From Vicinamibacteria bacterium (GTDB lineage: Bacteria > Acidobacteriota > Vicinamibacteria > Marinacidobacterales > Marinacidobacteraceae): 64,000 nucleotides of DNA. Where the stretch lies: the NCBI GenBank assembly GCA_965199715.1, contig OZ241322.1, forward strand, positions 1,376,001 to 1,440,000, in the 5' to 3' direction. The translations under genes and the position numbers were made by a program. Shown piece by piece: positions 36,375 to 49,491 of the stretch (positions within the stretch are counted from its first letter, which is position 1; every line of letters starts with the position of its first letter). Under the pieces are notes generated by a model. That model ran no database searches. It worked only from the letters and a program-made list of their open reading frames with translations, and was not told the DNA's origin.

Positions 36375-37562
36375 ATGCCGCTGCTGATCCTCGTCCTCAT
36401 GGCCGGCCAGTTCCGGGGGCCGGATCGGGACGGTCAGGTCCACGTGTGGCCGGACGCGCTGCGCAGCGCCGAGAACTGGCCGGCGGAACTCGAGGAGGTC
36501 TGGCGGGTTCCGGTCGGCCTCGGGCACGCCAGCCCGCTCGTGGACGGGGATTCCGTCTTGCTGTTCGCCCGAAGAGGCGAGGACGAGGCGCTCCATCGAC
36601 TGGACCTCGCGGACGGAAGCGTCGAGTGGACGGTCTCGAACCCGGCCCCCCACGCGATGCACCGGGCGGCGCTCGATCACGGGCCGGGCCCCAAGTCCAC
36701 CCCGACGCTCGACGGCGGCCTCGTGTTCACGCTCGGGATCTCGGGGATCCTGAGCGCGCATGACGCGGCGACCGGGGAACTGCGCTGGCGGCGCCGTCGC
36801 TACGAGGAGACCCCGCTGTACGGGACCGGGAGCTCGCCGCTGGCGCGCGACGGCCGCGTGTTCGTCCACGTCGGCGGGACCGAAGACGGAATCCTCGCCG
36901 CGCTGGACGCCGAAACCGGCGAGACGATCTGGGAAGTTCCCGACGCCCCGGCCTACGTTTCGCCCGCGGTCGCGCCGGTCGCCGGGCTTCCCACGCTCAT
37001 GACCATGAGCCTGTCGCGCATCCTGCTGCTGCGCCCCGACAACGGGCGTGTCCGCTGGGAGACGCCGTTCCGAACGCCCTACGACCAGAACGTCGCGAAC
37101 CCGCTCGCGCTGGGCGACGTCGTCGTCTTCGGCGGGCTCGACCACCCGACCTTCGCGGTGCGCTTCTCCGTCGAGGGCGAGTCGCTCGTCGGCGAGACCG
37201 TCTGGGAGGCTGACCGGACCCGCCTCTACATGAGCAGCCCAGTGCTCGCCGGCGGGCGCCTCTTCGCGTTCGGCGAGCAGAACAGCGGCCAGTTCATCGC
37301 CTTCGACCCGGCGACCGGCGCGGACGTCTGGCGCTCGCCGCCGCGCTCGGGCGAGAACGCGGCGTTCCTCGTCCACGGCGAGACCGTCCTCGCGCTCACC
37401 GAGCAGGCCGACCTCATGGTGCTCGACGCCGCGAAACCGGACTTCCGCCCGGTGCGCACCTACTCCGTCGCCCCGAGCCCGACGTGGGCGCAGCCGGTTC
37501 CGGTCGCGGACGGGTTCCTCATCAAGGACGAGACCCACCTCGCCCGGCTGCGCGCCCCCTAG
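36375..37562 (+). CDS. PQQ-like beta-propeller repeat protein
   Basis: QFRGPDRDG, GHASPLV, repeated LD..TG...W motifs. Confidence 0.85.
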   Translation: MPLLILVLMAGQFRGPDRDGQVHVWPDALRSAENWPAELEEVWRVPVGLGHASPLVDGDSVLLFARRGEDEALHRLDLADGSVEWTVSNPAPHAMHRAALDHGPGPKSTPTLDGGLVFTLGISGILSAHDAATGELRWRRRRYEETPLYGTGSSPLARDGRVFVHVGGTEDGILAALDAETGETIWEVPDAPAYVSPAVAPVAGLPTLMTMSLSRILLLRPDNGRVRWETPFRTPYDQNVANPLALGDVVVFGGLDHPTFAVRFSVEGESLVGETVWEADRTRLYMSSPVLAGGRLFAFGEQNSGQFIAFDPATGADVWRSPPRSGENAAFLVHGETVLALTEQADLMVLDAAKPDFRPVRTYSVAPSPTWAQPVPVADGFLIKDETHLARLRAP

Positions 37563-37572
37563 AATCGGACCC

Positions 37573-39897
37573 GTGGCGATCAACACCCAGACCATCGGGC
37601 AGCGGGTCCGCCGTCGGGAGGACCCGGCGCTGATCACCGGCGCCGCCCGGTACACGACCGACATCCCGCTCGACGACGCGGCGCATCTCGCGATCGTGCG
37701 CAGCCCCTATCCGCACGCCCGGATCCTCTCGATCGAAGCGGACGACGCCCGCGCCATGCCCGGCGTGATCGGCGTCTTCACCGGCGCGGACGTCCTCCCC
37801 AAGCTGAAGAAGTCCTTCCCGGTCGGACGGTCCACCGACGCCGGCGGGTTCACCGAGCTGCACCTTCCGAAGCGTTGGCCCATCGCCGGGGACCGCGCCC
37901 GGGCGCAGGGCGACCCGGTCGCGTTCGTGGTCGCCGAAACCGCGGCGCAGGCCGCCGACGCGGCCGTCGAGGTCTTCGTGGACTACGAGGCCCTGCCGGG
38001 CAGCGGCACGTCCCGGGCCGCCCGCGCCGAGGGGGCGGGCCTGCTCTACCCCGACGTGGCCGGAAACCGATGCTTCCAGTGGGACATCAAGGCCGGCGAG
38101 AAAGGCCCGGTCACCTCGTCGCCGCCCGGAGCGGACAGCGTGGACGTGGAAGTCGAGTTCCGCATCCAGCGGCTGATCCCGAGCGCGATGGAGCCGCGCG
38201 CCGCCGCCGCGACGCTCGACGGCGACCGGCTCGTCGTCTGGACCACGACGCAGGCGCCGCATTCCGCCCGCGACAACCTCGCCCGCATCCTCGGTCTCGA
38301 CAAGGCGGACGTGCGGGTCATCGCCCCCGAGGTGGGGGGCGGGTTCGGCGCAAAGGCCAACATCTACCCCGAGGAAGTGCTGGCGGCGTGGCTCGCGCTC
38401 CGCCTGAAGCGCCCGGTGCGGTGGACGGCGACCCGCACCGAGGACTTCCAGACGACGACCCACGGGCGGAACCTCTACGCGACGCTCGGGGTCCGCGCCG
38501 GGCCCGACGGCCGGATCGAGCACTGCGACCTGACCTCGCTCTTCGACTGCGGGGCCTACTACAGCAAGCCGGGTCCGACCACGCCGGGGCTGACCGGCGC
38601 GATGATCCCGGGTCCCTACGCGATCCGCTCGGTGGACGCCCGCGCCGAGGGAGCGTTCACGAACACCGCCCCGAACGAGCCGTACCGGGGATCCGGCCGT
38701 CCCGAAGCCACCTACATGATCGAACGGGCCATGGACGTCCTCGCCGGGCGGCTCGGGATCGATCCGGCGGAGATCCGCCGCCGCAACCTGATCCCCGAGG
38801 ACGCGTTCCCGTTCCGCACCGCGACCGGGCTGCTCTACGACAGCGGCGCCTACGTGACGGCGCTCGACCGGGCGCTCGAGGCGGGCGACTACGCGGGGCT
38901 GCGCGCCGAGCAGGCTCGCCGGCGGAAGTCGGGCGGGAAGCCGCTCGGGATCGGGCTCGCCTGTTACGTCGAGATCTGCGGGTTCGGGCCGTGGGAGGCG
39001 GGCGGCGTGGAAGTCGGGCCGGACGCTTCGGTCACGGTGCGCACCGGCACCTCCCCGCACGGGCAGGGCCACGCGACCGCGTGGGCGCAGATCGCGTCGG
39101 AGGCGCTCGGCGTCCCCGCCGAGTCGGTGCGGGTGCTCCACGGCGACACCGACGAGAGCCCCCGGGGGATCGGCACCTTCGGCAGCCGCAGCGCCCCGGT
39201 CGGCGGCGCCGCGGTGTTCTCGAACGCCGAGACCGTCCGGGAGCAGGCGCGGCTCGCCGCCGCCGAGCTGCTGGAGGCGGCGGCGGCGGACGTCCGCTTC
39301 GAGAACGGGCGCTTCTTCGTCGCCGGCTCGCCGGCCCGGGGCGCCTCGTGGCCGGAGGTCGCCGCCTTCGTCCACGGCGACGACGCTCCCGAGTCCGTGC
39401 GCGGGAAGCTCCGGGCGGACACGGATTTCCGGCCGCCGGGCGAGACCTTCCCGTTCGGAACCCACCTCTGCGCCGCCGAGATCGACCCCGAAACCGGCGC
39501 GATCGGGATCCTCCGCTACGTCTCGCTGGACGACTGCGGGCGGGTCATCAACCCGCTCATCGCCGAGGGCCAGGTCCACGGCGGGCTCGCGCAGGGCATC
39601 GGGCAGGCGCTGTGGGAGGAGGCGATCTACGCCGACGACGGCTCGCTGCTGACCGGCACGCTCATGGAGTACGCGGTGCCCCGCGCCGACATGCTCCCGG
39701 CGTGGGAGCTCCACCGGACGGTGACCCCGACCGACCTGAACCCGCTCGGGGCCAAGGGCATCGGCGAGGCGGCCACGATCGGCTCCACGCCGGCGGTCGC
39801 GAACGCGGTCATGGACGCGCTGCGGCCCTTCGGGGTCGAGCACATCGACACGCCGCTGACCCCCGAGAAGGTCTGGCGGGCGATGCGCGGCCGCTGA
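37573..39897 (+). CDS. xanthine dehydrogenase family molybdopterin-binding large subunit (form II CoxL-like)
   Basis: RREDPALITG, VGGGFGAK, PYRGSGRPE, HGQGHAT, GQVHGG, KGIGEA. Confidence 0.92.
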   Translation: MAINTQTIGQRVRRREDPALITGAARYTTDIPLDDAAHLAIVRSPYPHARILSIEADDARAMPGVIGVFTGADVLPKLKKSFPVGRSTDAGGFTELHLPKRWPIAGDRARAQGDPVAFVVAETAAQAADAAVEVFVDYEALPGSGTSRAARAEGAGLLYPDVAGNRCFQWDIKAGEKGPVTSSPPGADSVDVEVEFRIQRLIPSAMEPRAAAATLDGDRLVVWTTTQAPHSARDNLARILGLDKADVRVIAPEVGGGFGAKANIYPEEVLAAWLALRLKRPVRWTATRTEDFQTTTHGRNLYATLGVRAGPDGRIEHCDLTSLFDCGAYYSKPGPTTPGLTGAMIPGPYAIRSVDARAEGAFTNTAPNEPYRGSGRPEATYMIERAMDVLAGRLGIDPAEIRRRNLIPEDAFPFRTATGLLYDSGAYVTALDRALEAGDYAGLRAEQARRRKSGGKPLGIGLACYVEICGFGPWEAGGVEVGPDASVTVRTGTSPHGQGHATAWAQIASEALGVPAESVRVLHGDTDESPRGIGTFGSRSAPVGGAAVFSNAETVREQARLAAAELLEAAAADVRFENGRFFVAGSPARGASWPEVAAFVHGDDAPESVRGKLRADTDFRPPGETFPFGTHLCAAEIDPETGAIGILRYVSLDDCGRVINPLIAEGQVHGGLAQGIGQALWEEAIYADDGSLLTGTLMEYAVPRADMLPAWELHRTVTPTDLNPLGAKGIGEAATIGSTPAVANAVMDALRPFGVEHIDTPLTPEKVWRAMRGR

Positions 39898-41085
39898 CTA
39901 GGCGGACATCCCCCGCGCCGCGATCGGCCAGACCGCCTCCACGACGCCGCCGCGCACCGCGTGCATGCGGTCGTAGAGGTTCACCACCGGGTCGCAGTGC
40001 GACACGATGAGCTCCAGCTTGTCCCCGACCTTGTAGGTCCGGCTGGGATCCTCGTAGCGGATCGTCCCGAATTCGTCGGAGCCCGACGTGTAGCTCATCC
40101 CGGTCTCGCCCTTCACGAGGGGCCATGGCCGGTTGATCGTGCACGCCTTCGCGCCGGCGTCGGTGGTCGCGCGCCCGTCGTACTGCGCGTTCAGCACCGT
40201 CGCGAGGATCGTGAGCGAGGACTCGAAGTCGTCGTAGATCTCCGGGTTGTCGCGGCCCCCGATCACGAGGTACTGCGCATCCATGAACGCGTAGCTGCCC
40301 ACCTGCACGTCGGTCAGACCGGGAGTCTCGTGGTCGATGTTGTAGGTGCCGGTGCCGCCGCCGCTGAAGATCCCGGAATCGAGACCCGACGCCCGCATCC
40401 GCTCGCAGGTGTCGGCGGCGGCGGCGAGGCGCTCGAGCGTCTGCGCCCGCCGGGCCTCGAAGCCCATGACGTGCTGCGAGCCGCCGTCGTAGCAGAGCAG
40501 GCCCCGCAGCCGCAGCCCCGGCAGCCGGTCCACGAGCTGCGCGAGCCCGAGCGCCGGCGCGCCCGGCGTGATTCCGGTGCGGTGGCCCCCGGGATCCACG
40601 TCCACGACCACCTCGGCGGTGATTCCCGCCGCCTCGGCGGCCTCCGAGAGCATCCGGGCGTTCTCCTCGGAGTCCGTCGCCTGGACGAACCCCGGGCAGC
40701 GCCGGCGCAGGCCCATCGCCCGGCGGATCTTGTAGGGCGTGACGTTGCTCGTGGTGAGCAGCAGCTCGTCGATCCCATGGTCGAACAGCGCCTGCGCCTC
40801 GCTCACCTTCGCGACCGAGATGCCGACCGCGCCGGCGTCGAGCTGCATCCTCGCGATGGCCGGACACTTGTGGGTCTTCGCGTGCGGGCGCGGCGCGATC
40901 CCGTTGGCCGCCGTGACCCGCGCCATCTTCGCGACGTTGCGCTCGAGCGCGTCGAGATCCACGAGGAGCGCCGGCGTGTCCAGATCCCACATCGAGACCC
41001 CGTATTCGGCCGCCGCCAGCGCCGGAAGGGCCGCCGTCGCGCCCGCGGCGCCCAGAAATCCTCGTCGAGAAAGGGACATCGTCAT
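39898..41085 (-). CDS. Tat-exported DSD1/D-threonine aldolase-family PLP enzyme
   Basis: SRRGFLG Tat signal; DTPALLVD, RPHAKTHK, SGGGTGT, SDEFG, HCDPVVN. Confidence 0.88.
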   Translation of the reverse strand: MTMSLSRRGFLGAAGATAALPALAAAEYGVSMWDLDTPALLVDLDALERNVAKMARVTAANGIAPRPHAKTHKCPAIARMQLDAGAVGISVAKVSEAQALFDHGIDELLLTTSNVTPYKIRRAMGLRRRCPGFVQATDSEENARMLSEAAEAAGITAEVVVDVDPGGHRTGITPGAPALGLAQLVDRLPGLRLRGLLCYDGGSQHVMGFEARRAQTLERLAAAADTCERMRASGLDSGIFSGGGTGTYNIDHETPGLTDVQVGSYAFMDAQYLVIGGRDNPEIYDDFESSLTILATVLNAQYDGRATTDAGAKACTINRPWPLVKGETGMSYTSGSDEFGTIRYEDPSRTYKVGDKLELIVSHCDPVVNLYDRMHAVRGGVVEAVWPIAARGMSA

Positions 41086-41130: not shown

Positions 41131-42723
41131 ATGCGCCTGCTGCTCGCCGCGCTCCTGACCGCCGCTCCGGCGGTCGCCGAGGAGGGGATTCCGGTCACGA
41201 GCCCGCTGGTGCGGGCGGCCTGCGGAAGCTGCCATCCGAGCGACGACGACGGCCGGATGACCCGCATCTCGCACCAGCGCAAGTCCGCCGAGGGCTGGCA
41301 GATCACGATCGTGCGCATGATGCGCACCGGCAACGTGGACTTGGAGCCCGAGGACGCGCGGGCGATCGTCCGGTACCTGACCGACAGCCACGGGCTGGCC
41401 CCCGAGGAGGAGCGCCCGGTCTTCCACCAGGCCGAGCAGCGCGCCTTCCAGGAGACGGTGGGCGAGGACGAGGAACTGCTCCAGGAGACCTGCTCGCGCT
41501 GCCACCTGACCGCCCGATTCCGCGCCCAGCGGCGCACCGCCGAGGAGTGGGACCTGCTGAAGGGCATGCACGTCGGCTACTTCCCGGTCATCGAGTTCCA
41601 GACCTTCCGCGGGTCCCCGGCGGCGGACGGAAGCTGGGCCGTCGATCGGGCGCTCGACCAACTGAAGGAGAAGTACCCGTTCTCGACCCCCGAGTTCGAG
41701 GCGCACCGGGCCAAGGGGCCGGGCGCCGGGATCGCCGGGCGCTGGACGGTCCGGGGCCATCTTCCGGGCGCCGGGCCGATCGGCGGATTCGTCGAGTTCG
41801 AGCCCGGTCCGGACGGAGACTGGCGGGAACGGACGACGTTCGTCCATCGGGACGGCACCGTCGAGGAGCGCACCGGCTCCGGAGTCCTCTACGGCGGCTT
41901 CTCGTTCCGGGGCCGGACCGACGGGCCGGTGCTCGGCGAACGGCGGGCCGCGCTCCTGCTCTCGGACGACGGCGCGACGCTGACCGGGCGCATGTTCCGG
42001 GGACGCTTCGGCGAGGACGGCGTGGAGCTGACGCTGACCCGGGGCGCGGGAGCCTCGGCGGCCTGGCCGCGTTCCGCCAGGCGCGGCGAAACGGTGAGCC
42101 TGCGCATCCTCGGCGACGGGTTCGCCCACGCGGACGGCCTCGACTTCGGGGCCGGGGTCACGGTGACGCGGACGCGGGTCGTGTCCGGGCAGGAAATCGC
42201 CGCCGAGGTCGCCATCGACCCCGACGCCGGGATCGGCTACCGGGATCTGGCGCTCGGCGGGACGCGGCTCGTGGACGGATTCGCGGTCCACGACGGGATC
42301 GGCTACGTGAAGGTGACTCCGGAGCAGGCGCTCGCCCGGGTCGGCGGCGCGGTCGCGCCCCGCCAACCGGCGCAGTTCGAGGCGGTCGGCTGGCATTCGG
42401 GCCGGGACGGCGAGCCGCTCACCGGGGACGACCTCGACCTCGGGCTGCTGGACGTCTCGTGGAGCACCGCCGAGTACTACATCCGCGACGAGGACGCGGA
42501 CACCCGCTTCGTCGGGAACGTGAACCAGCGCGGCCTGTTCACTCCGGCGCTCGACGGCCCGAACCCCGAACGCCCGCTGAACGCCGACAACATGGGCGAC
42601 GTCTGGATCGTCGCCGAGTACGCGGCCCCGGACGGCCGGACCCTGCGGGGCCGCGCCCGGCTCGTCGTGGCTCCGCCCGTGTTCATCCACTGGGACCTCT
42701 TCCCGGAGCGCGCCGGCCAATGA
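41131..42723 (+). CDS. qhpA: quinohemoprotein amine dehydrogenase alpha subunit (diheme c)
   Basis: Signal peptide, CGSCH and CSRCH heme motifs, RISHQRKSAEGW, ARVGG, GLFTPA..GPNPER...NMGD. Confidence 0.93.
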   Translation: MRLLLAALLTAAPAVAEEGIPVTSPLVRAACGSCHPSDDDGRMTRISHQRKSAEGWQITIVRMMRTGNVDLEPEDARAIVRYLTDSHGLAPEEERPVFHQAEQRAFQETVGEDEELLQETCSRCHLTARFRAQRRTAEEWDLLKGMHVGYFPVIEFQTFRGSPAADGSWAVDRALDQLKEKYPFSTPEFEAHRAKGPGAGIAGRWTVRGHLPGAGPIGGFVEFEPGPDGDWRERTTFVHRDGTVEERTGSGVLYGGFSFRGRTDGPVLGERRAALLLSDDGATLTGRMFRGRFGEDGVELTLTRGAGASAAWPRSARRGETVSLRILGDGFAHADGLDFGAGVTVTRTRVVSGQEIAAEVAIDPDAGIGYRDLALGGTRLVDGFAVHDGIGYVKVTPEQALARVGGAVAPRQPAQFEAVGWHSGRDGEPLTGDDLDLGLLDVSWSTAEYYIRDEDADTRFVGNVNQRGLFTPALDGPNPERPLNADNMGDVWIVAEYAAPDGRTLRGRARLVVAPPVFIHWDLFPERAGQ

Positions 42724-44144
42724 GCGGAACCCGCGTCGCCGCCGGCGAGATGCATCGGTTCACCGGCGGGAGCCGCAACTTCGCCTTCCTCGTCCCGTCC
42801 TCGATGATCTTCGAGCTGGACGAGGCCAGCGACCGGGTGCTCCGGCGGCTCGAGGACGGCCCGAAGCCGCCCGGCGAGGTGGTCACGAGCCCCGAGGAGG
42901 CGGACGCGCTGCGGGAGCTCGCCGGCATCGGGGCGGTCTCCCGGGAGGGCGCACCGCTGATCCCGATCGGCGGCCTCGCCGAAGTCGAGACCCCGCCGCC
43001 GATCCGCACCGTCGTCCTGAACGTCACGAACTCGTGCAACCTCGCCTGCCGCTACTGCTACGAGTACGGCGACGACCGGATCGCCGCCGCCGAGGTTCCC
43101 GCGGCGATGACCGAGGAAGTGGCGCGGCAGTCGGTCCGGCGGCTCATCGCCGACTCGGGCGAGGCGAAGGACCTCCAGGTCACCTTCTTCGGCGGCGAGA
43201 CCCTCCTCAACTGGAAGGTGATTCCGGGCACCGTGGAGTTCGCGCGGGAGGAGGCCCGGAAAGCGGGCAAGCGGGTGGATTTCAGCCTCACCACGAACGC
43301 CACGCTGCTCACGACCCAGGTCTCGCAGTGGATCGCCGACAACGGGATCGGGGTGACCATCAGCGTGGACGGCCCGAAGGAGTTCCAGGACTCCATGCGG
43401 GTGTACGGCGGCGGCATGGGGAGCTACGACGTGATCGCGCCGCGGATCCGCGAGTTCCTCAAGCTCCAGAAGCGCCCGGTGGGAGCGCGGGTGACCCTCA
43501 CCTCGCAGACGCTCGACGTGCCCCGCATCTTCGAGCACCTGATCGGGCTCGGGTTCTACGAGGTCGGCTTCGCGCCGGTAACCTCTTCGCCGGGCCAGGA
43601 CTACGCGCTGGACGACGGCGGCTTCGACGAGCTGCTGGACCAGTTCCGGGCGCTCGCCGACAGCTATGTCGAGACCGCGGCCAAGGGCGGCTACCTCGGC
43701 TTCTCGAACCTGACCGACCTGCTCGGCGAGATCCACCAGGGCGTGAGCAAGGCGTACCCGTGCGGCGCCGGCCTCGGCCTCGTGGGCGTCGCGCCCGGCG
43801 GGGAGATCGGTCTCTGCCACCGCTTCGCCGGCTCGGGCGACCACGATCTGGGCCACGTGGACACCGGGATCGACGACGCGAAGCGCGTGGAGCACCTCGA
43901 GAAGGCGCACATCGACGCTCGCACGGACTGCAGCCAATGCTGGGTCCGCAGCCTGTGCTCGGGCGGCTGCTACCACGAGGCCCAGACTCGCTACGGCGAC
44001 CGGTTCCGCCCCAATCTGCACTACTGCGACTGGATCCGCGACTGGACCGCGCTCGGCCTGTCGGCGTACGGTCGGCTGCTCGAAGCGAACCCCGCGTTCC
44101 TGAAACGCTTTGACGGCCCGGCCCGGGAGCGGCTGAACCCGTAG
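42720..44144 (+). CDS. qhpD: radical SAM/SPASM thioether-forming maturase
   Basis: CNLACRYC, FFGGET, CGAG...LCHRF, CSQCWVRSLCSGGC...HYC; ATGA overlap with qhpA. Confidence 0.93.
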   Translation: MSGTRVAAGEMHRFTGGSRNFAFLVPSSMIFELDEASDRVLRRLEDGPKPPGEVVTSPEEADALRELAGIGAVSREGAPLIPIGGLAEVETPPPIRTVVLNVTNSCNLACRYCYEYGDDRIAAAEVPAAMTEEVARQSVRRLIADSGEAKDLQVTFFGGETLLNWKVIPGTVEFAREEARKAGKRVDFSLTTNATLLTTQVSQWIADNGIGVTISVDGPKEFQDSMRVYGGGMGSYDVIAPRIREFLKLQKRPVGARVTLTSQTLDVPRIFEHLIGLGFYEVGFAPVTSSPGQDYALDDGGFDELLDQFRALADSYVETAAKGGYLGFSNLTDLLGEIHQGVSKAYPCGAGLGLVGVAPGGEIGLCHRFAGSGDHDLGHVDTGIDDAKRVEHLEKAHIDARTDCSQCWVRSLCSGGCYHEAQTRYGDRFRPNLHYCDWIRDWTALGLSAYGRLLEANPAFLKRFDGPARERLNP

Positions 44145-44154
44145 GAGGCCCGCG

Positions 44155-44481
44155 ATGAAGCACCTGAAACCGAAGAACGTGAAGGCTCGCTACGCCACCG
44201 AATGGCTGGAGGAGGGCGGAAGCGCGAAGGCGACCGCCGACGATCCCGGCCCACACTACCCGTCGGGCTGCACCACGATCTTCTCGCCGGGCTGGGAGGT
44301 GGACGCGACCGGCGGAACCGCCGCGCTCTGCCAGCCGATGGAGCGCGATCTCTACGACTGCTACAAGACCTGCTACTGGCCGGCGCAGGTGCCCGACTAC
44401 CTCAGCAACAGCCCCGACTGGCACAAGAACTGCGCCGCGGCCACCCAGGACTGGCGCGAAATCGACCTGATCTTCCCCTGA
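44155..44481 (+). CDS. qhpC: QHNDH gamma subunit precursor (CTQ peptide)
   Basis: Leader MKHLKPKN..A; core GCTT.F.PGWE, LCQPME.DLY.C...C.WPAQV.D; AGGAGG RBS. Confidence 0.93.
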   Translation: MKHLKPKNVKARYATEWLEEGGSAKATADDPGPHYPSGCTTIFSPGWEVDATGGTAALCQPMERDLYDCYKTCYWPAQVPDYLSNSPDWHKNCAAATQDWREIDLIFP

Positions 44482-45545
44482 TGCTTCCACGCGCCCTCGC
44501 CCTCCTCCTGCTGGCGCTCCCGGCGGCCGCCGAGGAGCCGAACCGGTTCCTCGCCGGGGTCTGGCCGGACCGCCTGATCGCCTTCAACCAGGAGACGCTC
44601 GTCTTCGAGCCGATCGGCGCGCTCCGCCACGGCGTCTCCACCGGGCAGGCGCGATCCCCCGACGGGCGCTTCTTCGTCTTCGTGACCGGGCGGCAGGAAG
44701 CGGTCGAGATCTTCGATTCCGAGGCGCTCGCGGTCGTGGATGAGTTCCGGCTCTCGACCGGCGCCCGCCGCATCCGCATCCAGCGCGCCACCCCGGACCC
44801 CCGAGCGGAGCGCATCTTCCTGCGGACGGTGGAAGTGGTCGAGGAGTCGGACCGCTTCCTCCACGACACCAAGGAGGAGATCCAGGTCTTCGACCGGGCC
44901 CGGGGCGAGATCGTCCACCGGATCCCGGCGGGCGAGTTCGTGAACCCGTGGCTCTCGGCGATCCACTTCAGCCCGAGCGGCGACCGCATGTACCTGCTCG
45001 GCGTGGACTCGCTCGTCGAGATGGATCCCGAGACCTGGGAGGTCCTCGAGCGGGTCGAGTGGAACGAGCCGCTCGCCCCCGGCTTCGGCGCGCCCCGGGG
45101 CGCCCGGCTGCGGCTCGTCGAACCCGGGCGGCTGTTCGGGATCTACCGGACGACCGAGCCGATGCAGGGCATGGACCTGTTCGGCGTGCTGGAGATCCGC
45201 CTTCCCGAGAAGTCCGTCGCCAGCTTCGAGGTCGGTCCGGGGATGCGCGTCGGCCAGTTCGCGCTCTCGCCGGACGGAAAGTTCGGGTACGCCGGGCTCA
45301 GCGACTTCGCGGTCATCGACATGGAGACCAGGGAAGTCGTCCTGCGCAAGAAGGGCTTCGAGCGGGGCCGCACGAACACCTCGCTCATCGTTTCGGCGGA
45401 CGGCGCGCGGCTGTTCATCTCCGGCGTCGGCGACACGATGTACGTCCATGACGCGCGCACCCTCGAACGCGAGACCGAGGTCTTCGCCGGGGGCGACTTC
45501 ATGATCTCGCCGACCGAGATGCGGCGGAGCGGCTCGGGCAACTGA
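44481..45545 (+). CDS. qhpB: QHNDH beta-subunit-like beta-propeller
   Basis: Signal peptide, repeated SPDG blades, position directly after qhpC; divergent sequence. Confidence 0.7.
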   Translation: MLPRALALLLLALPAAAEEPNRFLAGVWPDRLIAFNQETLVFEPIGALRHGVSTGQARSPDGRFFVFVTGRQEAVEIFDSEALAVVDEFRLSTGARRIRIQRATPDPRAERIFLRTVEVVEESDRFLHDTKEEIQVFDRARGEIVHRIPAGEFVNPWLSAIHFSPSGDRMYLLGVDSLVEMDPETWEVLERVEWNEPLAPGFGAPRGARLRLVEPGRLFGIYRTTEPMQGMDLFGVLEIRLPEKSVASFEVGPGMRVGQFALSPDGKFGYAGLSDFAVIDMETREVVLRKKGFERGRTNTSLIVSADGARLFISGVGDTMYVHDARTLERETEVFAGGDFMISPTEMRRSGSGN

Positions 45546-47203
45546 CCTCCGGCGCCTCGCCCGACCTCTACGGCCGGGCGTTCCGGCTGACCCGGCCCTA
45601 CTGGCGGCGGCTGCCGCCGGTGCTCGCGCTCTCGGTGGTTTCAGGGCTTCCGGGGCATCTCTGGCCGCTCTTGGTCCAACCGCTCGTGGACGGGGCGCTG
45701 CTGGGCGGCGATTTCGGCCTCCTCGTGCGGCTCGCCGGGGCGATGGCGGCGATGCAGGTGGTCGGCCTGCTGCTCTCCTCGTACACCGGCTACCGCTACG
45801 TCTCGGTCTCGGCGCGGGCGCTCTTCGAACTGCGGCTCACCGTCTATCGGAAGCTCCAGAAGCTGTCGCCGCGCTTCTTCGCCGAATCGCGCACCGGGGA
45901 CGTGCTCTCCCGGCTGAACACCGACGTCTCGGAGCTGCAGCGGACCGCCGGCGACCTGCTGCTGTCGCTTGTCTCGAACGTCCTCGGCCTCGCGGTCTCC
46001 GTCACCATGGTCGCGTGGCTCGCCCCGTCGCTGCTCGTTCCCTCGCTCGTCGCCGTTCCCCTCGCGTCGGTCGCGCTCTCGAGGCTGCGCGGGCGGGTGA
46101 TCCGGGAAAGCCGCCAGCTCCGGGAGGCGGGCGCGTCCGTCGGAAGCCTGCTGGTCGAGTCCATCCTCGGGCTGCGCCAGACGGTCGCCTTCGGCCAGCA
46201 GGCGCGCGAGGCGAAGCGGTTCGGGCGCGAGAACGACCGCTTCATCGACGCCCTGCTGCAGGCGCGGCGGACGACCTACGTGGCCGCCGGGATTCCGTCC
46301 TCGGTGGTCGCGCTCGCCGGCGCGGCGACGTTCCTCTACGGCGGGTTCCTCGTCATGGAGGGCGCCCTCACCCTCGGGACGCTCGGAGCCGCGATGATCT
46401 ACCAAGGACGGCTCTTCGGCCCGATCCAGGGGCTGATCGGCCAGCGCCTCTCGCTGCAGGCGGCGCGGGCCTCGCTCGAGCGGGTCTTCCATCTGCTGGA
46501 CCAGCCGGACGGAGTGCGGCAGGCGAAGGACCCGGTCGCGCCCGGCGCGGGACCGTTCCGGCTGGACCGGGTGGGGCTCGCGTACGGCCGCGGCGCGGTG
46601 CTGGACGGGCTTTCGCTGACGCTTCCCGAGCGCTCGCTTACGGCGCTGCTCGGCCATACCGGGGTCGGCAAGACCACGGTGGCGGACCTCATCCTGCGGC
46701 GGATGGATCCGGACTCGGGCCGGCTCGGCTGGGGCGCGACCGATCTCCGCCGCATCGACCTCGGAGCGCTGCGCCGCCGGGTCGCGGTCGTGGAGCAGGA
46801 GCCGTTCCTGTTCCACGACTCGATCCTCGCGAACATCCGCTACGGCGCGCCCGACGCGACGCTGCGGGAGGTGCGCGAGGCGGCCCGGCTCGCCGCGCTC
46901 GACGGGTTCCTCGCCGAGCTGCCGGGCGGGTTGGAGACGGTGGTCGGCGAACGCGGCCAGTCGCTCTCCGCCGGACAGCGCCAGCGAATCGCGATCGCGC
47001 GGGCGGTGATCACCGACCCGGCGCTCATCGTCCTCGACGAGCCCAGCTCGGCGCTCGACGAGGCGACCGAGGCGCTGCTGGTCGAACGCCTCGTCCCCTG
47101 GCTGCGGGAGCGGATGGCGCTCGTGATGACCCATCGCCCGGCCTTCGTCGAGGCGGCGGACCAGGCGTTCGCGCTCCGGAACGGACGGGCGGAACCGATG
47201 TGA
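45542..47203 (+). CDS. ABC exporter (QhpF-like); probable CTG start
   Basis: TMD plus GHTGVGKT, LSAGQ, VLDEPSS; the open frame extends 5' to the CTGA overlap (..RLTRPYWRRL). Confidence 0.85.
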   Translation: MTSGASPDLYGRAFRLTRPYWRRLPPVLALSVVSGLPGHLWPLLVQPLVDGALLGGDFGLLVRLAGAMAAMQVVGLLLSSYTGYRYVSVSARALFELRLTVYRKLQKLSPRFFAESRTGDVLSRLNTDVSELQRTAGDLLLSLVSNVLGLAVSVTMVAWLAPSLLVPSLVAVPLASVALSRLRGRVIRESRQLREAGASVGSLLVESILGLRQTVAFGQQAREAKRFGRENDRFIDALLQARRTTYVAAGIPSSVVALAGAATFLYGGFLVMEGALTLGTLGAAMIYQGRLFGPIQGLIGQRLSLQAARASLERVFHLLDQPDGVRQAKDPVAPGAGPFRLDRVGLAYGRGAVLDGLSLTLPERSLTALLGHTGVGKTTVADLILRRMDPDSGRLGWGATDLRRIDLGALRRRVAVVEQEPFLFHDSILANIRYGAPDATLREVREAARLAALDGFLAELPGGLETVVGERGQSLSAGQRQRIAIARAVITDPALIVLDEPSSALDEATEALLVERLVPWLRERMALVMTHRPAFVEAADQAFALRNGRAEPM

Positions 47204-47763
47204 CGCTGCGGATCGCCGTCGTGGACAGCGGGATCAACCCGGCGCACCGGCACGTGGGCCCGGTGGCGGGCGGGGTGCGCATCCGCATGCGCGACGGCCG
47301 GCTCACGTTCGACGACGACTGGCGCGACGGCCTCGGCCACGGGACGGCGGTGGCCGCCGTGATTTCCGACGGGCTGGACCCGGACCAGTTCGCGCTGCTT
47401 TCGGTCCGGATCTTCAACCGGCGCCTCGACGCGCCGCCCGAGGCCGTGGCCGCCGGGATCGAGTGGGCGGTCGAAAACGGCGCGGACCTCGTCAACCTGA
47501 GCGTCGCGACGTCCGGCGAAATCCGGGCGGCGGTCCCGGTGTTCGCGCCGGCCGGACTTTCGGGCGCGATCGGGGTGGAAGCCGACGACCGCCTTGGCTA
47601 CGGGACGGTCCTGCCCGGCCCGCCGATCCGCGCCTCGCCGTGGGCGCGCCCGCTGCCGCCGCTGCCCCGGGAGAAGAACTTCCGCGGCGTGAGCTTCGCG
47701 GTGGCGGCCGCCGTCGGCCGGGCGGCGCGGCTACGGCTTCAGGGGGAGGCGAGCAGCACGTAA
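47200..47763 (+). CDS. small cytoplasmic subtilisin-like S8 protease (QhpE-like leader peptidase)
   Basis: IAVVDSG, GHGTAVA, VNLS, GVSFA catalytic motifs; no signal peptide. Confidence 0.85.
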   Translation: MTLRIAVVDSGINPAHRHVGPVAGGVRIRMRDGRLTFDDDWRDGLGHGTAVAAVISDGLDPDQFALLSVRIFNRRLDAPPEAVAAGIEWAVENGADLVNLSVATSGEIRAAVPVFAPAGLSGAIGVEADDRLGYGTVLPGPPIRASPWARPLPPLPREKNFRGVSFAVAAAVGRAARLRLQGEASST

Positions 47764-48236
47764 TTCGCCTTGCAGTGGCGCTCGAGCTCCTCGGCGAGAT
47801 CGCCCGCGGCGTTCCTGAGGCTCGCGCCCTGTTCGCGCTCGTCCAGCCCGATCAGCGGCTTCACGTCCCGCTCGATGATCGCGATGGCGTTCACCGAATG
47901 GGTCTCGACGACGACGCTTCCCTCGACCATGATGGGCGTGCCGTTCAGGATGTGCCGGTTCACCTTGGGCTGCATCTTCTCGGCCACCCGGTAGCCGGCG
48001 ACCCGCAGCACGATCCGCGCGGCTTCCGGCTCCTCGACGATACGGAACCAGCGATCCCGGTCGCCGACCCGCTCGCGCACCGCCTCCACCGCGGAGAGGA
48101 TGCGGATCAACGCGTCCTCGTCGGCGGCGTCGCCGGCGACCACGGCGACCACGGCGACCGGGAACGGTTCGGGCGGGTTGCGGGGGGCCTGCGGCTCGAA
48201 CGCGGCCGCGAGCAGGGCGAGAGCGACGAAGCGCAT
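47739..48236 (-). CDS. hypothetical exported protein
   Basis: Signal peptide, GC3-biased codons, resembles 54935-55357. Confidence 0.65.
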   Translation of the reverse strand: MRFVALALLAAAFEPQAPRNPPEPFPVAVVAVVAGDAADEDALIRILSAVEAVRERVGDRDRWFRIVEEPEAARIVLRVAGYRVAEKMQPKVNRHILNGTPIMVEGSVVVETHSVNAIAIIERDVKPLIGLDEREQGASLRNAAGDLAEELERHCKANYVLLASP

Positions 48237-48243
48237 GGCCCCC

Positions 48244-49491
48244 TCATGGTAGCCAAGGCGCGGCCTCGCCGTCCGCCGCGCCGAAGGAGAACGTCCGCAC
48301 CGCCGAATCGGCGAGCGAGTCCCGCAGCAGCTCGTCCATCCCGGGCAGGAGCCGGGCCTCGAGCGACGCGAGCCCTCCGGGGCGCGAGCGGGTCCGGGGC
48401 GAGCGGGCGATGAGGGCGCAGCAGTCCTTGGCCGGCTCGGCCGAGACGTCGTGGGTTCCGATGGCCTCGGCGCGGGCCATGATCGCGGCCTTGTCCAGCC
48501 CGATCAGCGGCCGCAGCACCGGCATGGACACCGCGGCGTCCACGGTGATGAGGTTGCCGATCGTCTGCGAGGCGACCTGCGAGAGGCTGTCCCCGGTCAC
48601 GAGCGCCGCGGCCTCGAAGCGTTCCGCCGCCGCTTGGGCGCACCGGAGCGCGAACCGGCGGAAAAGGAGCGCCTCGTAGCCGGTTCTCGACCCGGCGAGC
48701 TCGAGGTCCAGCCGGACGAACGGCACGAGCACCAGCCGAGAGCGCCCGGTGTAGCGCGACAGCGCGGCGACGAGCCGGGAGACCTTGACGACCGAGGGAT
48801 CGTCGGAATGGGGATGCCCGGGCGCGACGTGCAGGAAGTCCACCTGCGCCCCCCGGCTGGCCAGCATCCACGCCGCCACCGGCGAATCGAACCCGCCCGA
48901 GAGCAGCGCGAGGAAGCGGCCCGCCACGCCCACCGGCAGCCCCCCCGGCCCCCGCCGCCGCTCGGTCCACACGCAGCAGGCGTCCTCGTAGTTGTCGATG
49001 CGCACGGTGAGCGCCGGCGCGGACAGGTTCACCCGGCGCCAACCGGTTCGCTCGAGGACGGCGGCGCCGACGGCGTCGGCGATCCCCTGGGAACGGATCG
49101 GGAACCCCGGATCCCGCCGGCGCGCGCGGACCGCGAAGCCCGCCTCGGGATCGTCGGGGCGGCCGGCTTCCGCCAGCTCGCAGGCGAGCTCGACGAGCTG
49201 CGGGACCAGCCCGTCCCCGGTTCCGTCATGGGGAATCGCGTGCGCGGGGATCGCGAGCTCCACCCCGAACACCGTGCGCAGCGCCTCCAGAACCGGGTCG
49301 ATGCGCTCGGGATCCACGGCCTCGATCCAGACCCGGTCGCGCATGGAGCGCACCCGCCAGCCGCAGCCGACGCTGTCGAGCCGCGCCCGCAGGTTGCGCT
49401 TGAGCGCCTCGCGGAATCGGGGCCGGTTGCGGCCCTTGATCCGGACCTCGGGCGACCGGATCAGGATGCGCCGGGAGGCGAGCGGGAACAA
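48244..49491 (-). CDS. thiI: tRNA 4-thiouridine synthase (THUMP + PP-loop, no rhodanese domain)
   Basis: EVRIKGRNRPRF, GPGGLPVG, LLSGGFDSPVA, TGDSLSQVASQT, RPLIGLDK, DCC. Confidence 0.92.
   Translation of the reverse strand: MFPLASRRILIRSPEVRIKGRNRPRFREALKRNLRARLDSVGCGWRVRSMRDRVWIEAVDPERIDPVLEALRTVFGVELAIPAHAIPHDGTGDGLVPQLVELACELAEAGRPDDPEAGFAVRARRRDPGFPIRSQGIADAVGAAVLERTGWRRVNLSAPALTVRIDNYEDACCVWTERRRGPGGLPVGVAGRFLALLSGGFDSPVAAWMLASRGAQVDFLHVAPGHPHSDDPSVVKVSRLVAALSRYTGRSRLVLVPFVRLDLELAGSRTGYEALLFRRFALRCAQAAAERFEAAALVTGDSLSQVASQTIGNLITVDAAVSMPVLRPLIGLDKAAIMARAEAIGTHDVSAEPAKDCCALIARSPRTRSRPGGLASLEARLLPGMDELLRDSLADSAVRTFSFGAADGEAAPWLP

Follow-up and report, generated by a model that had tools for sequence, protein, structure and literature searches.

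The DNA analysed here, hereafter the window, is a stretch of 64,000 nucleotides from a Vicinamibacteria bacterium (Acidobacteriota; GenBank assembly GCA_965199715.1, contig OZ241322.1, positions 1,376,001 to 1,440,000), and between its positions 41131 and 47763 it carries six codirectional genes on the plus strand, in the order qhpADCB-ABC-E, where ABC stands for an ATP-binding cassette exporter. Our analysis indicates, with a probability that we put at about 0.85, that these genes form a genuine quinohemoprotein amine dehydrogenase (QHNDH) operon, encoding an alpha-beta-gamma enzyme with a predicted cysteine tryptophylquinone (CTQ) cofactor, and that the operon is served by a QhpG encoded in trans, from which it was split by an inversion. 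The window's own genome (G000; 2.66 Mb in 2 contigs, 93% complete, the window being C1:1376001-1440000) was compared with a set of 61 related genomes, in which we distinguish its own family (f1), a sister family (f3) and a further family (f7); G001, G002 and G003 are three sister species of the same genus. We infer enzyme activity, cofactor chemistry and expression from these comparisons. Matches to NCBIfam models were judged by their curated cut-offs, namely TIGR03908 (274.35 bits), TIGR03906 (453), NF037958 (50), TIGR03907 (223.2), NF049966 (165) and NF049967 (240).

The gene content of this operon, its layout, its tight coupling and its closure by opposite-strand genes are all as given in a preliminary description of the window, made from the sequence without database searches. 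The first gene, qhpA (41131-42723; 530 aa, with a signal-like N-terminal segment), encodes the dihaem cytochrome c alpha subunit: the protein reaches 403.2 bits with the equivalog model TIGR03908, matches all four Pfam QHNDH-alpha domains and aligns over its full length with 1JMX_A (E 3.8e-69) and 1JJU_A (E 3.3e-63), its two CXXCH motifs (CGSCH and CSRCH) being in register with the haem motifs of 1JMX_A. Next comes qhpD (42720-44144; 474 aa), for a radical S-adenosylmethionine (SAM)/SPASM maturase with a Radical_SAM Pfam match and the cluster motif CNLACRYC in its translation, which scores 504.7 bits with TIGR03906, the next family, PapB, giving 270 bits and staying under its own cut-off. The gamma subunit precursor is encoded by qhpC (44155-44481; 108 aa, that is, a leader of ~32 aa and the CTQ-bearing mature part); it scores 136.3 bits with NF037958, also matches the Pfam gamma domain and aligns to the mature chains 1JMX_G (E 1e-24) and 1JJU_C (E 1e-23). 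With respect to both chains, QhpC keeps Cys7, Glu16, Cys27, Asp33, Cys37, Cys41, Trp43 and Asp49. In 1JJU numbering, we take CTQ to be formed by Cys37 and Trp43 and the thioethers by the pairs Cys7-Glu16, Cys27-Asp33 and Cys41-Asp49; in precursor numbering the conserved CTQ residues are Cys69 and Trp75, the latter being Trp43 of the mature chain. QhpC is moreover 92% identical to the nearest sequence cluster. The preliminary description had called the cluster divergent; QhpA, QhpC and QhpD nevertheless all pass their equivalog cut-offs, and their alignment with the solved Pseudomonas and Paracoccus subunits is full-length.

The three remaining genes are qhpB (44481-45545; 354 aa, with a signal-like N-terminus), for the predicted seven-bladed beta-propeller of the beta subunit, a qhpF-like gene for a fused permease/ATPase ABC exporter (45542, or 45620, to 47203; 553 aa when counted from a CTG codon), and a qhpE-like gene (47200-47763; 187 aa) for a mini-subtilisin, the putative QhpC leader peptidase. 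At the junctions, an ATGA overlap links qhpA and qhpD (read from the sequence), a 10-nt gap containing GGAGG separates qhpD from qhpC, qhpC and qhpB overlap by 1 nt, and a GTGA overlap joins the exporter gene and qhpE. All reading frames are open, and the G+C content at third codon positions (GC3) of all seven genes, that is, the operon plus qhpG, is 0.91-0.95, similar to that of their neighbours.

The preliminary description had also reported that the FAD monooxygenase gene qhpG was missing, and had offered three explanations: a QhpG-independent route to the cofactor, a different cofactor, or an enzyme encoded in trans. The 64-kb window indeed holds no qhpG, but the locus without qhpG was an effect of the window's edge, and it is the trans-encoded enzyme that is borne out. 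On the whole genome the QhpG model NF049967 gave two matches. The best one (C1:1517015-1518193, minus strand; 212 bits over model positions 1-397 of 423) falls in an intact gene at C1:1516946-1518202 (minus strand; 418 aa, GC3 0.92), ~94 kb downstream of the operon end and ~96 kb from qhpC, thus outside the window. As a protein it scores 213.3 bits with QhpG, followed by GoxB (74 bits) and LodB (60 bits), and its best match in the PDB is 7CTQ_A, 'peptidyl tryptophan dihydroxylase' (E 3.2e-15, residues 4-398 against 8-402). LodB and GoxB, which take part in CTQ maturation of LodA and GoxA, are FAD-dependent and modify a peptidyl Trp, as QhpG does; their systems, however, have a lodA- or goxA-type substrate gene, and none is involved at this locus. 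The protein is 57-61% identical to 11 QhpGs of f1 and 35-41% identical to nine of f3; eight of these nine are above 240 bits, seven of them over the full model, and in three of the nine genomes qhpG lies ~3.1 kb from qhpC, in a fourth 3.8 kb. It shares 69/69 invariant columns of the 21-sequence clade alignment and its closeness to the f3 QhpGs is on a par with that of the other f1 proteins (37.5% vs 37.6%). Taken together, the best-scoring family, the match to 7CTQ, the conserved linkage to a PD40 gene described below and the identity of 57-61% identify the distal gene as a probable qhpG orthologue, although it stays under the curated cut-off.

The second match of the QhpG model (C1:2116146-2117102, minus strand; ~137 bits) lies in the gene of a 410-aa halogenase-like flavoprotein (C1:2115888-2117120, minus strand; L022:1333-2562), which was also found by a Trp_halogenase Pfam search and which we rejected as QhpG. 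This protein scores 138 bits with QhpG but 181-185 bits with CmlS, PltA and ChlB4, to which it is thus closer; its 44 PDB matches (ChlB4 with 181 bits and PltA with 170 bits) do not include 7CTQ, and equivalents with 135-137 bits are found in the three sister genomes without QhpC. It contains a WxWxIP motif, which we take to be the halogenase motif, and similar matches occur in most of the 61 related genomes.

The distribution of both genes links the distal qhpG to the operon. QhpC is present in 39 of the 61 genomes, and 31 of these have a QhpG above 240 bits and 37 one of at least 200 bits, the latter line being our own and set after the scores were seen; only G053 and G054, whose completeness is 74-75%, fall short of it. 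Among the 22 QhpC-negative genomes (G036 enters the tallies solely as one of them), none exceeds 240 bits and one reaches 200 (G035, with 201.6 bits over model positions 20-329). The three sister species G001-G003 have neither QhpC nor a QhpG-model match above the 136-bit paralogue. Where the operon stands in G000, between a D-serine-dehydratase-like (DSD-like) gene and dn165, the latter lies within ~100 bp of the former in G001 and G002, and in G003 the slot between the PD40 gene and a Cys/Met gene, where qhpG would be expected, consists of 1.8 kb of 58% GC DNA without qhpG in a genome of ~72% GC. With the G000 query, the PD40 gene was not found in G001 and G002 at E <=1e-100, and tblastn of the sister loci (L067-L070) detected no remnant of qhpA, qhpD, qhpC, qhpB, qhpE or qhpG. 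The operon and qhpG thus disappeared from two separate loci in the same lineages, and this joint loss argues strongly, on comparative grounds, that the operon is served by the distal qhpG. By the same comparison, there is good evidence that organisms outside Proteobacteria need QhpG too.

The separation of qhpG from its operon is explained by one ~101-kb inversion, shared by the genus, with a breakpoint between qhpG and the DSD-like gene, which as part of the reading above we consider highly probable. Gene order was compared in 12 genomes from other genera of f1, one of the loci (L042) coming from a related-locus search with the beta protein that returned 1 locus; the frames of flanking open reading frames (ORFs) were chosen by GC3. 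The recurring order in f1 is a CDF transporter gene, PD40 (810 aa) and qhpG in one direction and, after 0 to ~20 kb, the DSD-like gene in the opposite one, followed by qhpA, D, C, B, ABC and E in the first direction and, further on, by dn165 and ThiI pointing back; qhpG abuts the DSD-like gene in G014, G006 and G011. In G000 a molybdenum (Mo)-hydroxylase gene (+) is joined to the DSD-like gene (-), followed by qhpADCB-ABC-E (+), dn165 (-) and ThiI (-), and ~90 kb further on a Cys/Met pyridoxal phosphate (PLP) enzyme gene (+) is joined to qhpG (-), PD40 (-) and CDF (-). In G014 the order is Mo-hydroxylase (+), 3.8 kb, Cys/Met gene (-), ~122 kb, ThiI (+), then qhp (-) and the DSD-like gene (+), directly followed by qhpG (-) and PD40 (-). 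Inverting C1:1415898-1516962 of G000, from the DSD-like gene (the segment starts at window position 39898) to the Cys/Met gene, restores the f1 order.

This model predicts that the Mo-hydroxylase and Cys/Met genes, ~100 kb apart in G000, are close to each other in relatives, and this was found in four of the five tested (G008, G011, G014 and G006; 1.2-4 kb), the exception being G007, where they are 283 kb apart. As expected from the model, the ThiI side of the cluster and this pair are ~122 kb apart in G014. The same junctions, with the DSD-like gene beside the Mo-hydroxylase gene and PD40 leading to the Cys/Met gene, are present in same-genus genomes, so that the inversion must be older than the species. 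Both junctions are gene-tight: at one of them the convergent stops abut, and at the second they overlap by 17 nt.

Leaving aside G000 (~96 kb) and G008 (~233 kb), the distance between qhpG and qhpC is 4.5-25 kb in the 16 f1 genomes that have both genes on one contig. In seven genomes of f3 and f7, qhpG lies 3.1-3.8 kb from qhpC, and G059, the single locus examined gene by gene, has the order G-A-D-C-B-ABC. The f3 loci L047 and L048 are less GC-rich and GC3-based calling missed most of their genes, so stop-to-stop ORFs and phmmer were used there. In four other f3 genomes (G051, G031, G048 and G046; loci L029, L030, L032 and L033) the best qhpG and qhpC are on different contigs, which suggests a second kind of qhp gene split. 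The qhpGs of these four genomes adjoin an ABC-exporter-like gene that scores 190-216 bits to the window's exporter.

Several observations weigh against our reading of the locus, and they are considered together here. The first concerns the beta subunit, which reaches 35.0 bits with TIGR03907 (QH_beta) and thus misses the cut-off of 223.2; its sequence match to 1JJU_B has E 0.002 and its identity to the solved betas is 16-18%. The preliminary description had seen in this divergence a hint of a new substrate class. This divergence is genuine, yet it characterises the lineage as a whole and not this cluster in particular, given that the QH_beta cut-off is reached in 0 of the 61 related genomes, the best score being 90 bits in f3. 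The f3 betas score 85-90 bits over model positions 9-325 and the f1 betas 25-30 bits, and a chain of homology connects the G000 beta to the f3 betas at ~250-317 bits. An AlphaFold2 model (pLDDT 83.8, pTM 0.82), for which 26 sequences of the clade served as input, was compared with the PDB by Foldseek: among at least 500 matches, 1JJU_B came first (E 3.5e-19) and 1JMX_B second (E 1.3e-15, TM 0.74/0.77), so that QHNDH betas outrank generic YVTN and WD40 propellers. As modelled, the fold is thus that of the seven-bladed QHNDH beta propeller in spite of the divergent sequence. A search of 1.84 billion proteins with a profile of the clade betas brought up 108 representative clusters at E <=1e-30, which makes this divergent beta family a sizeable one, and it is possible that its divergence signals a new substrate class.

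With regard to QhpG, the score of 213.3 bits is under the curated cut-off of 240, and the protein lacks ~20 residues near the C-terminus that its relatives carry; the low score can be attributed to this missing segment. Arg70 and Glu84 of QhpG are described as highly conserved in the QhpG study (PMC7876137). In the phmmer alignment with 7CTQ, the G000 protein has His in place of Arg70 and, beside a gap, Arg in place of Glu84. The His at the Arg70 position is, however, invariant in all 21 clade QhpGs, including those above the cut-off. In its present place qhpG is apart from the operon and codirectional with the unrelated PD40 gene, whose TAG stop and the GTG start of qhpG have one base in common; qhpG is thus probably translated together with the PD40 gene rather than with the qhp operon. 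The PD40 gene (C1:1518202-1520634, minus strand; L041:10202-12634) encodes a secreted PD40/DPPIV_N-repeat protein of 810 aa directly upstream of qhpG, a position that it always occupies in f1.

The exporter and the peptidase also depart from expectation. No ATG, GTG or TTG codon precedes the conserved N-terminus of the exporter, the first in frame being the GTG at 45620. Alignment with the exporters of relatives, which are ATG-started and of ~560 aa, begins at residue 4-7 of the CTG-started form and takes in the stretch YRRAFRLT-PYWRRL ahead of this GTG, and the conserved N-terminal segment LYGRAFRLTRPYWRRL stands upstream of the first ATG, GTG or TTG. The start is therefore likely to be the CTG at 45542, which would form CTGA with the qhpB stop. 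The exporter matches generic ABC families (MsbA_rel, 294 bits, under every specific cut-off), and no QhpF-specific model surfaced in its NCBIfam scan, in which the listed matches are generic and all under their cut-offs; it occupies the conserved position after qhpB, as in the clusters of relatives. QhpE scores 92.6 bits with NF049966, short of the cut-off of 165, with model positions 1-97 of 219 matched, and it lacks ~35-40 internal residues present in 14 relatives, in the region past the NLS oxyanion motif. It nevertheless has a Peptidase_S8 Pfam match, its N-terminal half aligns to subtilisins, and the motifs DSG, GHGT, NLS and GVSFA (Asp, His, Asn and Ser) are retained.

No regulator was detected either. 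QhpR is an AraC-type, amine-responsive regulator, and the HTH_18 domain (PF12833, AraC-type) gave 0 matches at E <=0.001 in the whole 93%-complete genome, while 8 of 14 control genomes matched. The lack of qhpR that the preliminary description noted is thus confirmed as far as this domain search goes, and a literature text search for qhpR gave no relevant paper. For the inversion, a blastn-short comparison of ±1.5 kb around the breakpoints found no repeats at the junctions, the best repeat nearby being one of 23 nt (E 2.9e-05) located ~0.5-0.7 kb away and in direct orientation. Finally, the system was lost in the three sister species, and selection on it may be relaxed in the genus.

In line with this last point, the alternative that survives best is that the system is eroding in the genus: the ORFs would still be open while active enzyme is no longer made, at a stage that precedes the loss seen in the sister species. 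The shortened QhpE with its 97/219 matched model positions, the exporter gene without a canonical start at its conserved N-terminus and the C-terminal deletion of ~20 residues in the sub-threshold QhpG can all be read in this way, as can the absence of qhpC and qhpG from the other genomes of the genus (retained in 0/3) and the beta protein of G000, which is 59-64% identical to the other f1 betas, those being 66-95% identical among themselves. We consider erosion improbable, however, as the seven genes all have open, full-length frames and a GC3 of 0.91-0.95 like that of their neighbours, the coupled overlaps are intact, QhpA and QhpD stand above their equivalog cut-offs, and QhpC, 92% identical to its nearest cluster, keeps every functional residue. 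In addition, the Asp, His, Asn and Ser motifs of QhpE are kept, and QhpG has all 69 invariant columns and has drifted from the f3 proteins no further than other f1 QhpGs.

Far less probable still is a QhpG-free route to CTQ or to another cofactor, either autocatalytic, as has reportedly been suggested for the initial hydroxylation in MADH and LodA, or through the halogenase-like flavoprotein: the position of qhpG outside the operon with no regulator linking it, the second QhpG-model match of 137 bits, and the Tyr in place of gamma Trp42 together with a fifth gamma cysteine, by which the chemistry may differ in detail, speak for it, but an intact qhpG is present, co-occurs with qhpC in 37/39 genomes and disappeared, from a locus of its own, in the same three sister species that lost qhpC. 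Cys69 and Trp75 are moreover conserved, and the paralogue is nearer to the halogenases and persists at 135-137 bits in the same three QhpC-negative genomes. The QhpG-independent route and the different cofactor of the preliminary description thus find no support once the whole-genome search with the QhpG hidden Markov model has revealed an orthologue elsewhere that accompanies the cluster in relatives. As the idea of CTQ biogenesis without QhpG does not stand, no new cofactor chemistry is implied.

Under our preferred reading, of a genuine QHNDH operon with a distal qhpG, maturation would proceed as in Paracoccus and Pseudomonas. QhpD would introduce three Cys-to-Asp/Glu thioethers into the QhpC precursor, QhpG would dihydroxylate Trp75 (mature Trp43), and QhpE would remove the leader of ~32 residues. 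The ABC exporter would deliver the cross-linked gamma subunit to the periplasm, where it would assemble with the Sec-exported dihaem alpha and the propeller beta, and where CTQ would be completed. The locus would then represent a clean case in which the gene of a single-turnover maturase was split from its substrate operon by inversion, after which both loci disappeared jointly from sister species. It also calls for caution, since a gene declared missing from a cluster on the basis of a 64-kb window requires a check of the whole genome.

Compared with the qhp systems of Paracoccus denitrificans and Pseudomonas putida (1JJU, 1PBY, 1JMX and 1JMZ; QhpG, 7CTQ), the same seven functions are found here, those of QhpE, QhpF and QhpG through probable counterparts, with the same catalytic and cross-link residues in gamma and a full-length alpha with the same haem motifs. 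The differences are a qhpG that lies at a distance of ~94 kb and follows an unrelated PD40 gene, the lack of an AraC-type regulator match, a beta of 16-18% identity, the Tyr for Trp42 and the fifth Cys in gamma, a QhpE of 187 aa with internal deletions, and an exporter that probably starts at CTG. In the QhpG publication, the qhp operon is said to be found in >1300 species, and the genes to be all required, with an arrangement, order and coding strands that vary among species (PMC7876137). QHNDH is also listed for an acidobacterial genome in a preprint on Group 18 Acidobacteria (10.1101/2021.04.09.439258), and gamma subunits named as such by NCBI occur in metagenome-assembled genomes of Blastocatellia and Bryobacter. 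Other Vicinamibacteria qhp clusters (f1, f3 and f7, including OZ246946.1) have the same qhpADCB-ABC-E order, divergent beta and five-Cys gamma, and those of f1 share with G000 the divergently oriented DSD-like neighbour and the CDF-PD40-qhpG unit. With respect to the other f1 genera, the genus of G000 differs by the ~101-kb inversion and by three further species without the system.

These clusters point to a large, as yet uncharacterised clade of acidobacterial QHNDHs, in which beta is very divergent and gamma has five cysteines. The fifth cysteine of QhpC, Cys93 (window 44431-44433), lies near the C-terminus in the motif HKNC-AAATQ-DW and corresponds to Ala in both solved gammas (1JMX_G and 1JJU_C). 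We surveyed the G000 protein and the nearest 120 of 726 clusters at 90% identity (n=121): the mature part has five cysteines in 119 of these sequences, and the position of Trp42, which is Tyr in G000, holds Phe in 67, Tyr in 52 and Ala in 2. The alpha of G000 has four haem cysteines only and its beta none, which excludes a disulfide for Cys93 inside the heterotrimer. Judging from the sequence, Cys93 may be either a free thiol or part of a fourth QhpD-made thioether, Cys93-Asp99, whose +6 spacing is that of Cys27-Asp33. Very tentatively, and with more doubt than conviction, acidobacterial QHNDHs could be regarded as a distinct subclass in which a fourth Cys-to-Asp thioether, if that is the role of the fifth Cys, together with Tyr/Phe42 and the divergent beta, reshapes the pocket for a different amine. 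If this were true, these three features could suit the active site to another amine substrate. Soil Acidobacteriota are abundant, so the amine oxidised could be relevant to the turnover of nitrogen and carbon in soils.

As for the flanks of the operon, the gene divergent from qhpA (39898-40992, minus strand) encodes the DSD-like PLP enzyme, similar to D-serine dehydratase and D-threonine aldolase (Pfam Ala_racemase_N, 82 bits; D-ser_dehydrat, 61 bits). This gene adjoins qhpA in every f1 locus examined, and it is also present, with 87-88% identity, in the three qhp-less sister genomes, which indicates that it is independent of qhp. On the other side, dn165 (47739-48236, minus strand) is convergent with qhpE, overlaps it by 25 nt and encodes a protein of 165 aa with no match in NCBIfam or Pfam; the ThiI gene (48244-49491, minus strand) comes next. 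Of the 12 f1 genomes, 11 have homologues of both on the downstream side of the cluster, at 1-5.5 kb and adjacent in none, and neither was detected in the retrieved stretch of the remaining one, G006. Upstream of the DSD-like gene, a BamB/PQQ_2 propeller protein (36375-37562, plus strand) precedes the Mo-hydroxylase large subunit of the aldehyde oxidase/xanthine dehydrogenase family (37573-39897, plus strand). The Mo-hydroxylase gene adjoins the qhp operon only through the inversion, and it stays in the qhp-less sister genomes.

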